Shown: positions 26,044-53,147 of the stretch, one piece after another
Position numbering within the stretch: the stretch's first letter is position 1
Layout: each line of letters starts with the position of its first letter
Made by a program: the position numbers and the translations under genes
The notes under the pieces: generated by a model
Databases searched by the model: none
The model's input: the letters and a program-made list of their open reading frames with translations, nothing else
Told to the model about the DNA's origin: nothing
Source of the DNA: Eledone cirrhosa
Taxonomy: Eukaryota
Length of the DNA: 64,000 nucleotides
NCBI GenBank assembly: GCA_964016885.1
Contig: OZ024755.1
Location: 24,428,001-24,492,000, forward strand
Reading direction: 5' to 3'

Positions 26044-26109
26044 TATTTTATCTGATGAAGACGTACTGTTGAAATAGCTCAGTACCTCTGAAATATGTAT
26101 AATAAAATA
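26044..26109 (+). ncRNA. Minimal type I hammerhead ribozyme (H2)
   Basis: UAUUUUAU-CUGAUGA-AGACGUACUG(11 nt)CAGUACCUCU-GAAA-UAUGUA-UA-AUAAAAUA. 8-bp stem I, stem II 9 of 10 pairs, cleavage predicted after 26101. Confidence 0.85.
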
Positions 26110-26339
26110 TATTTTATCACATGAATGTCTATATTTATTAATATTTTGTAGTAATATATATATATATATATATATATATATATATATATATATATATATG
26201 TATATATATATATATATATATATATATATATATATATATATGTATATATATATATATATATATATATATATATATATATGTATATATATAGTATAAAAAT
26301 AACGAAAAATCAGTGATGCATCTGGACTCAGTTTATTGC

Positions 26340-26428
26340 GTGTTACAATTGTTTCGCCGGCAGGTAGTTCGAGACATGATCACTGTATGGATCTGGCTGA
26401 TTCTACGGCTGCAGGTTCCTTCGGATAT
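26340..26428 (-). ncRNA. Decayed hammerhead (core CCGAAGG)
   Basis: GAAA-CAAUUG-UA intact with palindrome ACAAUUGU and a long imperfect stem II. Core and stem I are mutated. Confidence 0.4.
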
Positions 26429-26910
26429 GGGTAGTTCGTTCGGAGCAAATTTTCTCACTGGGGTGTTATCGTCAAAAAACACCTTCAAAAAACATCTTCC
26501 ACTCTTGTCATGCCATTGGCTGTTGCTATTCCACGTCATCTTAAGTTCTGGTCACTATGTATATATATATATATATTTAACGAAGGAAGTGTGGTAAAGA
26601 ACTAAATGGACTAGAGTACTCAATACTTTGAGTATAGAGTGAACTAGTCCAGAAATAGCCGTCGAAACGGCTTGAGCTCTGCCGTTGGAGTCTTGAACAT
26701 TTTCCTATATATATGTGTGTGTGTGTGTGTGTGTGTGTGTGTGTGTGTGTGTGTGTGTGTGTGTGTGTGTGTGTATGTATATATATATATATATACATAT
26801 ATATATATTCATATATATATATATGTGTGCGTGTGTGTATGTATGTGTGTGTATTAAGTAAAACGATGAAGCTTCGTTTACATGTATTTAGTGTTATTTA
26901 TTTTTAGTAA

Positions 26911-27101
26911 AGGCGGTGGATTGGCAGTATTGGTAGAGGGTCGGACGCCATGCTTTGACGTATAGAGTTACGGCCCTTGCCATTCTGAGTTCAAATCCCG
27001 CCGAGGTTAACTTTGCCTTTCATCCTTACGGGGTCGATAAAATAAAGTACCAGTAATACACTGGATAATTGCTGGCCTTGTGCCTAACGTAGAAACAATT
27101 A
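26911..27101 (+). mobile_element. Family N SINE, full length
   Basis: Near-identical to 10696-10890 and to the reverse complement of 61769-61957. Confidence 0.9.
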
Positions 27102-27389
27102 TTTATTTTTAGTAACGAACTGTTACGCGCGCTTCACAGAGGATTGGCTCAATGTACCCAATAGAAGCTATAGCCTTGACTCCATTATCGATCTCCTCTT
27201 CGCACTGGTGATTTATAAAAATGTATTTGTTGTTCCCCAAATTCCTAGTCTTTTCACTTTATCTTTGTTCAGACAATGTCACAGAACAAAATAGAAAACC
27301 AATCTCTCTGAACTATAAGTACTGGCCATTGAAAGAGTGTACACGATTTCTCTCAAGCCAGTACACACAAGTCTCAATATCATTCGAGG

Positions 27390-27597
27390 GCGGTGTATTG
27401 TCAGTATTGATAAAACGTCAGACAACATTTTGTTTTATGGCATAGGGTTGTCCTTTTACGATCTGAGTTCAAATCCTGCCGCGGTTAGCTTTGCCTTTCA
27501 ACCTTACGAGGGTCAATAAAATAAAGTACCAGTAATACAATGGAGTCGATTTAATCGACTTTCCCCTCGGCCAAAATTGTTGGCATTGTGCCTAAAT
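27390..27597 (+). mobile_element. Family N SINE, older variant
   Basis: GAGTTCAAATCCTGCCGCGGTTAGCTTTGCCTTTC...ATAAAATAAAGTACCAGT. Confidence 0.85.
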
Positions 27598-50199: not shown

Positions 50200-50450
50200 G
50201 ATTTCTTTATTTGCCACAAGAGCGCACAAGAAAAGAGGACAATACAAAGACATATGCCGGGAATTTTACATATAGTCGTGTAAAAAAAAATATAAAACAA
50301 ACAATTACAACAATCGAAATCCCCAATAGGGGAAGCGCCACAAATGGGTTGTTTTATACCCCGTCAATAGAACAACCCTCAACTCCAGGAGTGTGTTGTG
50401 CAAGTGCTCCTTTCTTCCGTTTGCTCTCTTCTTTAACCTACAGGCTTATA
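50200..50450 (-). mobile_element. 3' UTR fragment of the Tx1-like family
   Basis: Shares CCCCAATAGGGG, ATACCCC, CAACCCTCA.CTCCAGGAGT and AACCTACAGGCT with 35487-35735. Confidence 0.75.
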
Positions 50451-51214
50451 AACAGATAAATAGATAGATAGATAGATAGATAGAGAGATAGAGAGAGAGA
50501 GAGAGAGAGAGAGAGAGAGAGAGAGAGAGAGAGAGAGAGAGAGAGAGAGAGAGAGAGAGAGAGAGCGAGAGAGAGAGAGATAGATACATAAATAAATATC
50601 TTTCTTGATAGATATCTTTCTGATAGATAGAGGGAAGTAAATCGAAAAGATATATAGTTAGTGAGTGACTGATTGATAAGATAATAGAGATGATCAGATC
50701 GATATGTTTATGATTTTATCGTTAAAGTGCTCAATATACAGTCTCTTATAGGATGGTGGTGGTGGTGGTGGTGGGGAGAGCAGAAACAGCACAACAGTTG
50801 AGTGTCTATAATATATCATATCAGTGTTTGTGTTTCTCGTGAATGTGTGTGTCTGAGAGTGTGTTTGTGTGTGTATACGTGTATGTGTGTGACTGAGTGT
50901 GTATGTGTGTGAGTGAGTATGTGTCCGAGTGAATGTATATGTCAGTGTCTGTGTGTGTGAGTGTTTCTGTGTGTGTGTCAGTGTGTTTGTATGAGTGTGA
51001 GTGCGTCTGTGTGTTGGTGTGTGTATGTCTGAGTGAATGTGTGTGTGAGTGTATATGTGTGGAATGGTTTCTGTGTGTGTGTGTGTGAGTGTATATGTGT
51101 GGAATGGTTTCTGTGTGTGTGTGTGAGTGTATATGTGTGGAATGGTTTCTGTGTGTGTGTGTGTCAGTTCCTCCAGAGAATAGAGAGTGAGAAAATGGAA
51201 GTGAGAAAGAGATA

Positions 51215-51330
51215 TAGAGGAAGAATCGACTCCAGTATTTGATTTTTTATCGCTGTGGAGTGGATGAAAGGCAAAGTTGACCTCGGTGGGATTTGAACTC
51301 AGAGAACAGAGCGTCGAAACGAATACCACA
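51215..51330 (-). mobile_element. Family N-related SINE fragment
   Basis: GGATGAAAGGCAAAGTTGACCTCGGTGGGATTTGAACTC. Confidence 0.8.
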
Positions 51331-51704
51331 AATCACACATATATATCTGCACACACACACACACACACACACACACACACATATATATATATATATATAT
51401 ATATAAGAATAAACGGGTTGTGTAGTTGCTGAATAAGGTGTACTTATAAAAAGAGGAAAGCAAGAACGGGAGAAAATTTTACTTCATCAGTTGTCTGCTG
51501 GGGGTCTTGGACATTTCAATGCATTAAAGACAATATGTCTCACCCCAGGGCGTCAATAACTCAAGGAAGTTATTGGGGGAAAAAAGGAAAGAGAGAGAAA
51601 AAAATAGTAACAGAAGGGAAGAGGGAAGAAAAAGGAAAAAACATCGAAAAAAAATTGGAAGCAACAAACCGAAGAGGGAAACCCGAAGCACAATCCATAT
51701 ATAC

Positions 51705-51930
51705 CTGTGGTGGCTGCATCTTATTTTCGAGAATTGTCATTATATGCTCCTCATTCTTGAGTGGCATGACCATCTTTAGTCCTACCAAGGAATTACATTC
51801 CTTTCTTTGTATGACATTGATGTCAGTCACTATCACTTTGGTTGCCTGTTTGTATTGGTGAACTTCGAATGATCTTCGAAGTCCAACAATCTAGGCACAT
51901 TGTTTCCCACAATTCTTACACGAAGAAATA
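51705..51930 (-). mobile_element. RTE-like 3' relic with two decayed C2H2 fingers
   Basis: CKNCGKQCA*IVGLR and KECNSLVGLK. Tail CTCGAAAATAAGATGCAGCCACCA matches 8752-8776. Confidence 0.7.
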
Positions 51931-53081
51931 CCAGAGACCATAGTAGACCATTGCCGGCAGACTCGTAAAAGATGAACTGTTGATGGTGGACCTTTACTGC
52001 GGACTTGTTAGTGAACTGGTCAGCAGGAAAGGCACTACCAGTGAGGCGGGTAACAAGACTTTATCTTTAGAGGTAGCTCGCTCTTTCTTACATTTGTCAA
52101 TGTTTGTCATTCAATATAACAGTTCAATATATCACCGTTTGTTGTTATTTTGCATATAGTTTAACTAAAGCTATATAATTTTCGACGACAACACTTTGTA
52201 TATGGCTTCTCTGATGACTTCAAAGACCAGCTTTACTGAGGCAAACACGGTCACACTCATTGCACACAATGTTATTTTGAGCATCTGAACATCCAAGTAA
52301 TATCATACAGATTCTTACATAGACCGCTCTTTAATTTTTCATGCACCACAGGAGATTCTTTATTATTCCTGTTATATATAAAAGAATATATATATATACA
52401 GTATATATATATACAGTATATATATATATCTTCCGAGTGAAACAATTCTAGTACTGTAGAAGCCATTTCTATATCAAATATTTATACTCTGCTATGTATT
52501 GAGTAGCTTACTTACTGTGGTTACCCCCGATTGAACCCAGGATAAACATATATATATATATATATATATATATATATATATATATATATATGGGGGCCTG
52601 TGTATGTGTGTATCTCAGCCATGGGTCCTGAAATTTCTGTGATGTCAGAGGGGCACCTCTTGCGCATTTATCTTCATTATAGGTGTTCTATCTCAACCGT
52701 ATCTCTTCAGGAAATATACAGAACTAAAATAACAATAATTAATAACATAAGACAATATCAATAAAGTGGACGGTAAAGTGCATCGAGCTTATCTCATCAT
52801 AAATACATACACACATTGTGTATGTATTTAAGATATGTATATTGATATTGTCTTATGTTATTGGTGTGCAAGAAGCAAAGAAAATTTCAGTGATACGAAA
52901 AGATTTCCTGGTGGAAGTTCAGGTAAACCCCGGGGGTATATCCAATTTATATATTCCTTCCATATACTGTACCAACTATGTTGTTATTTCGGTTTATCTT
53001 TTAAATATATATATATATATATATATATATTTTTTTTTTTAAGGGTATGTCAATATTTATTTATAAAACTAACCTATATTA

Positions 53082-53147
53082 TATTTTATCTGATGAAAGC
53101 GCACCATAGTTTGCTCTGGTGGCCCTTGAAATATGTATAATGAAATA
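53082..53147 (+). ncRNA. Minimal type I hammerhead ribozyme (H2)
   Basis: UAUUUUAU-CUGAUGA-AAGCGCACCA...UGGUGGCCCUU-GAAA-UAUGUA-UA-AUGAAAUA. Cleavage predicted after 53139. Confidence 0.82.

Follow-up and report, generated by a model that had tools for sequence, protein, structure and literature searches.

Two hammerhead motifs in an Eledone cirrhosa locus very probably belong to end-pieces of sister Hydra-clade Penelope-like elements

A 64-kb stretch of the Eledone cirrhosa genome (64,000 nucleotides (nt) of contig OZ024755.1, assembly GCA_964016885.1, positions 24,428,001 to 24,492,000 of the forward strand), here called the window, contains two motifs that read as type I hammerhead ribozymes. 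Positions given below are those of this window. Each motif lies on the + strand within a short non-coding repeat copy, and these copies are very probably end-pieces, or pseudo-long terminal repeats (pLTRs), of Penelope-like elements (PLEs). As the preliminary description had reported, both motifs are 66 nt long, at 26044-26109 and 53082-53147. The features of the two copies are as follows:

25993..26157, + strand: copy 1, a family A short non-coding end-piece (pLTR region) between (TA)n tracts, recognized by a subfamily 42-mer and its kin at locus L267
26025..26033, + strand: GGTATGTCA motif of copy 1, forming, where kin are intact, the 3' side of a predicted hairpin in the 5' leader
26044..26109, + strand: hammerhead 1, type I, from sequence reading and folds
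53035..53285, + strand: copy 2, a family B short non-coding end-piece between (TA)n tracts, recognized by an exact 50-mer and its kin at locus L265
53044..53052, + strand: GGTATGTCA motif of copy 2, its leader-hairpin partner truncated away
53060..53163, + strand: predicted extended stem I of copy 2, from folding, in which 53060-69 pairs with 53154-63 past an internal loop
53082..53147, + strand: hammerhead 2, type I, from sequence reading and folds
53197..53219, + strand: first of two conserved RCUC...GAGYGCU hairpin-like motifs, a candidate priming signal for reverse transcriptase (RT)

Both motifs have the same layout, comprising an 8-bp stem I, CUGAUGA, a 31-nt helix II, GAAA, AUAUGUAU, A17 and the predicted cut. 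In hammerhead 1, the stem I strands (26044-51 and 26102-09) enclose the core CUGAUGA (26052-58), helix II (26059-89, with an unpaired C26062·C26086), GAAA (26090-93) and the near-palindrome AUAUGUAU (26093-100), with cleavage predicted after A26101 in an AUA triplet. The corresponding helix II of hammerhead 2 spans 53097-127, with an unpaired C53100·C53124 and a predicted cut after A53139. Measured against the core consensus of PMC3088659, both contain C3 U4 G5 A6 N7 G8 A9, G12 A13 A14, A15.1-U16.1 and H17. An Rfam search returned 0 matches to hammerhead models at the gathering threshold, a result that concerns library matching and not a defining property.

The shared anchors of the preliminary description proved real: the 5' strand of stem I, CUGAUGA, GAAA and AUAUGUAU-A are identical in both motifs, and GGTATGTCA precedes both hammerheads, at 26025 and 53044. 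The sole change in stem I, A>G at 53142, indeed yields a U-G pair through G53142. Within helix II of copy 1, A26059 looks private, as 29 of 30 kin have G. That both helix II sequences fold was true of copy 1 (z = -2.71 for helix II alone) but weak for copy 2 (z = -1.11), whose helix II has an off-register minimum if folded by itself. The whole 66-mers gave z = -1.50 (copy 1) and -0.10 (copy 2), such that single-sequence fold support is modest. For the extension of stem I, cognate pairing is predicted at -8.0 kcal/mol compared to -5.1 kcal/mol for non-cognate pairing (2 of 20,000 permutations).

The two helix II sequences had been described as completely different and unrelated. In isolation this was a fair impression, since only 12 of 31 positions are identical (P = 0.06, 100,000 shuffles). 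However, the two align without gaps, have the C·C in common, differ by compensatory swaps and are bridged by intermediate subfamilies. Between copy 1 and copy 2, pair 2 is G-C versus A-U, pair 3 is A-U versus G-C, and pair 6 is U-A versus C-G. Judged from these alignments, the helix II sequences of both copies are homologues linked via intermediate subfamilies, and the claim of unrelatedness does not hold.

Covariation extended beyond this pair. Among 18 hand-picked variants, 95.5% of cells pair, while slid controls drop to 38-55%. Six of the nine tested helix II pairs change on both sides (the ninth is mostly gaps), and all 9 of 9 one-sided stem I changes go to G-U. As the sequences are related, shuffle results are inflated and shuffle counts are not probabilities. 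A set of 99 position-ordered copies, taken from anchored genome matches with duplicates removed, had pairs 1, 2, 3, 5 and 6 formed in 98, 95, 93, 95 and 95 copies, respectively. Compensatory swaps occur at these five pairs. Pairing is thus kept in further homologues, and the earlier claim that structure is conserved over sequence survived.

Position 4 behaved differently, being paired in 0 of 99 copies and C·C in 92 of 99. The independently anchored families D and H1 have C·C there in 28 of 30 copies, and it is kept in the third family H1 even though its RT is 50-54% identical to that of family A (L300). A C-G pair at this position is predicted to stabilize helix II by ~6 kcal/mol, so the mismatch appears to be kept at a cost. 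This fixed, unpaired spot likely tunes cutting. One family A subfamily (L098, L108, L117, L121 and L128) has a 19-20-nt helix II with position 4 unpaired as C·A, C·C or C·U; the 5' C therefore looks more constrained than the 3' C.

Core positions are kept at 13 of 13 sites across families ~50% identical in RT. Only N7, the free position, varies by subfamily (U, A or G in family D), and this conservation is partly by design because the genome searches fixed core letters. Within the copy 1 subfamily, CUGAUGA differs at 4 of 182 positions (2.2%), compared to 1.9% in the leader and 1.5% downstream. These counts are small and come from 26 of 30 alignable copies, four having been dropped for truncation or indels. 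The pattern points to covariation as the product of selection on active, replicating master elements, with inserted copies decaying neutrally. The proposal that these are real ribozymes accordingly stands for selection on the fold in master elements, but covariation shows neither cleavage nor activity of the two copies.

The genomic setting identifies the repeats that carry the motifs. An anchored pattern gave 7,902 + 7,697 = 15,599 matches in the 3.0-Gb genome, compared to 0 for the reversed control. Among the matches listed were several helix II families and many head-to-head pairs. The 42-mer of the copy 1 subfamily occurs 189 times, and copy 2 is represented by 238 occurrences of its exact 50-mer. 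No coding frame of these elements lies within the 64-kb window, while elsewhere the subfamilies of both window copies flank RT-endonuclease frames (L267 for kin of copy 1, L265 for kin of copy 2). Walking upstream from family A led to a same-strand GIY-YIG-type frame ~2 kb away and then to RT; family B, the type of copy 2, has its own frame.

Full-length elements are ordered as hammerhead-bearing pLTR, RT-GIY-YIG frame, long 3' untranslated region (UTR) and hammerhead-bearing pLTR, often with an inverted stub upstream. For example, the hammerheads of L132 lie 4,765 bp apart around the frame, with a further inverted one, and those of L127 (family B) lie 3,435 bp apart. A single RT frame with C-terminal GIY-YIG between pLTRs, together with inverted truncated copies, was found at L132, L127, L265, L267, L300 and L305, and the longest open stretch (750 aa) at L115. 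Identity between the A and B proteins is 52% in one segment and 62% in another. They contain DKT (DKTNNLY in A and B) and YRDD, a CxCX5C linker (CNCRNKPDC and CNCRNKSNC), and CxLC..E..N..CxH around E and N. CCHH is absent, as there is no CxxC between VY and YIG. Insertions are in (TA)n targets, with the hammerhead present.

These properties match the Hydra clade of C-terminal-endonuclease PLEs, which includes Hydra-1_Obim (Craig et al. 2021, PMC8557442). Both have RT with DKT, the CxCX5C linker, GIY-YIG without CCHH, the CxxC and CxH around E and N, (TA)n targets, a sense hammerhead near the 3' end, a pLTR, inverted truncated copies and a one-sided tail. Similarity to Hydra-1_Obim was judged by eye. 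From these sequence features, we are strongly inclined to assign the motifs to the pLTRs of two sister families of Hydra-clade PLEs. The window copies are likely independent, inert cDNA stubs in TA repeats, and individually each is ordinary transposon debris.

Other candidate identities were rejected. Naiad has an N-terminal endonuclease and no canonical hammerhead, while here the endonuclease is C-terminal and a hammerhead is present. No antisense (Terminon-like) frame lies within ~1 kb upstream of the ribozyme, and the frame is on the sense strand. Non-LTR retrozymes are tandem non-coding monomers; the window copies are solo stubs, and their subfamilies have coding elements. The two motifs were also rejected as a functional pair, since each belongs to the end-piece of a different family.

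The sequence upstream of the hammerhead forms a second predicted structure. In 13 subfamily representatives, the GGUAUGUC motif closes a covarying predicted leader hairpin, formed by pairing of GGUA with the initial bases of an ACU(A/G)(U)CC site located 60-90 nt 5' of the core. Its inner stem varies between families. Averages were -8.8 kcal/mol for cognate and -5.9 kcal/mol for non-cognate pairing (0 of 20,000 permutations; 2,370 and 15,286 in two controls), counts which are not strict probabilities as the families are related. The outer 5' partner of this hairpin is damaged in copy 1. Pairing of the GGUAUGUC motif with helix II is predicted in some family A copies, copy 1 included. As a general feature, an 'anti-helix II' switch, in which the motif would invade helix II and explain the fixed C, was rejected (17,364 of 20,000 permutations, and no covariation across 13 subfamilies).

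The ACUA site is presumably the transcription start. A TATA box lies ~31 nt before it in families A and C. Out of 100 copies, 23 begin within -3..+8 of the site, 35 extend further upstream and 42 begin inside; copy 1 starts ~5 nt inside the putative transcript 5' end. Across the putative start, contigs of runs X1 and X2 fall from a depth of 255,617 to 47,434, only a hint, as the kind of these runs is not on record and the values give no copy number. In family B2 (L019 and L029), an ATTTGCAT octamer motif occupies the place of the family A TATA box, ~30 nt before the ACUA site.

At the 3' side, 59 of 100 copies end at +44..62 and 32 at +140..160 past the scissile bond. The two window copies have one end of each kind, as copy 1 ends +55 nt and copy 2 +146 nt past it, the latter being the long 'tail' end. 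Inclusion in this sample required two bases past the cut, and 0 of the 100 copies end within 10 nt of it; genome matches running from the cut site into TATA numbered only 11. Ends ~55 or ~150 nt past the scissile bond indicate that the integrated RNA spanned an intact hammerhead, either uncut or re-ligated. In both families, an RCUC...GAGYGCU motif lies a few nt downstream of each of the two preferred ends. The two arms of the head-to-head inverted pairs at L007, L010, L011, L030 and L265-L268 differ, one stopping near +55 and its partner near +150. Other repeats of the window contain a hairpin-like motif of similar form, ACTC...TTGAGTACT, at 24594 (+), 56080 (+) and 26640 (-).

In the monomer, the predicted pairing probability of helix III is near 0, and closing this helix would cost ~3-4 kcal/mol. 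The AUAUGUAU 8-mer self-duplex is predicted at -2.2 kcal/mol. Common loop variants are only G and A (199 and 41 of 242), both compatible with dimer pairing. Of four triplets tested in a viroid hammerhead, AUA was the slowest (PMC1636495), and the one minimal metazoan PLE hammerhead tested showed no activity as a monomer and weak activity as a dimer (PMC4209133). A weak, near-palindromic helix III suggests that cleavage is slow and dimer-dependent. We therefore lean toward master-element hammerheads being weak, dimer-dependent self-cleavers.

These data suggest a model for the element cycle. Transcription would begin at the ACUA site and the leader hairpin would form. The element endonuclease would nick (TA)n, and RT would prime just 5' of one of the two small hairpins and copy RNA whose hammerhead is uncut or re-ligated. 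Cleavage would need two hammerheads joined by AUAUGUAU pairing, for instance within one RNA that includes both pLTRs, and would release unit-length RNA. The fixed C·C may weaken helix II (by a predicted ~6 kcal/mol) or serve as a tertiary or protein contact. Taken as a whole, it is probable that the motifs are pLTR hammerheads of sister Hydra-clade families, inert stubs in the window and slow, dimer-dependent cleavers in the masters.

Several points weigh against this. The dimer is barely stable, and cofolding favors other structures over it (-26 to -30 compared to -22 to -23 kcal/mol). In its family A surroundings, the hammerhead is often not the fold predicted to have the lowest energy. Absent cut-site ends do not measure the cleavage rate, because cut RNA may simply be without a priming signal. 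As for the clade, both families have the N-terminal motif RWR where Hydra has RWK, a conservative change, and the elements measure 3.4-4.8 kb, whereas published Hydra elements are 'generally <3 kb' (PMC8557442). A Pfam search of four element proteins gave no RT or GIY-YIG match, and the clade call is motif-based.

Part of the same evidence could be read as efficient monomeric cleavage, which we consider rather unlikely. Here a tertiary dock, made by the C·C site together with the long stem I, would rescue the weak helix III, and copies would come from re-ligated circular RNA. Stem I does extend with family-specific pairing, the C·C is fixed across families, and most invertebrate retrozyme hammerheads cleave efficiently (PMC7229834). 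In addition, 13 of 100 copies include sequence 5' of the putative start and reach the long +150 end, a span that needs a tandem or circular template. A circle would not favor the 23 of 100 copies that contain an intact ribozyme and have their 5' end at the putative start. The triplet is AUA and helix III consists entirely of A-U pairs, and by eye the stem I flanks hold no conserved partner for the C·C. A non-catalytic RNA signal, providing RT binding or a priming context with negligible cleavage in vivo, is very unlikely, given that 13 of 13 core positions are kept across ~50%-identical families with only N7 free (partly by search design). It would account for the lack of any trace of cut ends among integrated copies, and functions other than cleavage are possible according to Cervera and de la Pena (PMC4209133). 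An extremely improbable option is that a single 27-kb transcript holds the two motifs as a functional pair, recruited by the host or arisen by convergence. The motifs are on the same strand with an identical dimer palindrome, making a heterodimer sterically possible, but ~190-240 exact kin of each copy exist elsewhere with typical stub ends in (TA)n, and the copy 1 subfamily decays neutrally. At 5.2 matches per Mb, two in 64 kb have a Poisson chance of ~0.04.

The upstream GGTATGTCA motif also resembles a 5' splice donor, which raises an alternative that we hold unlikely but that can coexist with slow dimer-dependent cleavage. G|GUAYGU would be the donor of a 5'-UTR intron holding the ribozyme and the priming hairpins, such that spliced RNA is translated and only unspliced RNA is reverse-transcribed. 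Across 13 subfamily representatives the motif keeps -1G, GU and +3A and, for the most part, +5G and +6U; family A has a pyrimidine tract and YAG shortly before ATG; and a 5'-UTR intron starting in the pLTR is known in other PLEs (PMC8557442). The leader hairpin, however, by itself accounts for most of the motif (0 of 20,000 permutations), the candidate acceptors in A do not lie at positions homologous to those in B, and family H1 has GGCAUAUCA instead. Two junction probes found 0 spliced retrocopies, a blank expected under either view. Bolder still, and quite doubtful, is that the Hydra pLTR constitutes a four-part RNA control module, comprising the leader hairpin, the C·C-braked hammerhead and twin priming hairpins, in which the ribozyme is off until two pLTRs dimerize and, were G|GUAYGU a splice donor, ribozyme and priming signals would sit in a retained 5'-UTR intron. 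If true, copying would be restricted to unspliced, uncut RNA, which would account for the retention of introns in Penelope-like elements.

Published work already covers the Hydra clade, the presence of hammerheads in PLE pLTRs and the variability of these hammerheads between families. Metazoan PLE hammerheads (Cervera and de la Pena 2014, PMC4209133) are likewise type I, located in pLTRs, with a long helix II and a small palindromic helix III. They are found mainly as truncated copies standing alone or as inverted pairs separated by 100-700 bp, in many variable families with covariation and with palindromic 15.2-16.2 and loop 3, and were proposed to act as dimers with low activity, as we suggest here. 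Stem I is 4-5 bp in that study compared to an extendable 8 bp here. G10.1-C11.1, highly conserved there, is kept in families A, D and H1 (the first pair being the extra nucleotide) and is A-U in B and C. In the available parts of PMC4209133, we found no mention of a fixed C·C or a leader hairpin.

Other features set these elements apart from the PLEs of PMC8557442. The tail is ~95-100 nt here and 30-40 nt there, and the 3' UTR here is long. File S2 of that study tabulates 26 Hydra rows, all of which (26 of 26) have C15.2-G16.2 and GUH, while the hammerheads here have U15.2-A16.2, AUA and a near-palindromic, all-A-U helix III. The C·C in stem II, fixed here, occurs in 0 of the 26 rows as tabulated. 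Animal non-LTR retrozymes also have type I hammerheads in short non-coding AT-rich repeats, and were proposed to derive from PLE pLTRs (PMC7229834; bioRxiv 10.64898/2026.07.22.740005). Unlike their tandem arrays of 170-400-nt monomers, the copies here are dispersed stubs with discrete ends, and their subfamilies have their own coding elements.

The AUA triplet with near-palindromic helix III, the fixed C·C and the leader hairpin were not found in the literature searched; Repbase, Dfam, subscription journals, figures and bioRxiv supplements may hold them. According to PMC8557442, it is unclear what hammerheads do in endonuclease-bearing PLEs. A single genome here provides many natural variants of this lineage, in which an unpaired C·C is fixed, the dimer palindrome is shared and copies have discrete ends off the cut site. 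These features render three questions testable: whether cleavage is monomeric or dimeric, what role the mismatch plays, and whether the integrated RNA is uncut or circular.

Further repeats accompany these elements. The third hammerhead family, H1, occurs in the window with its first core base at 55672 (+), 61126 (+) and 18445 (-). It has a CUGAAGA core, an ACUGC/GCAGU stem I, a AUAUAUAU palindrome and C·C at helix II position 4. The L300 locus identifies H1 as another Hydra-type element, whose frame shares 50-54% identity with family A in RT. Genome matches to a CUGAAGA-anchored pattern, common to H1 and family D, numbered 14,011 compared to 38 for the control. L067 has, at 949-2323 (+) of that locus, a more distant Hydra-like RT-endonuclease frame of 458 aa with a CNCRNRVDC linker, adjoining a family A copy. 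L060, L064 and L068 contain fragments of a different Penelope-type element beside Hydra copies, with extra Cys and His in the GIY-YIG region (CCHH-like). A ~120-bp repeat has many copies in the window (10375-10886, 26984-27618, 40762-41217, 61769-61887 and others) and also lies inside the L132 frame. Positions 1-3553 of L063 form a 69-bp tandem array in which one frame is open for 1,184 codons.

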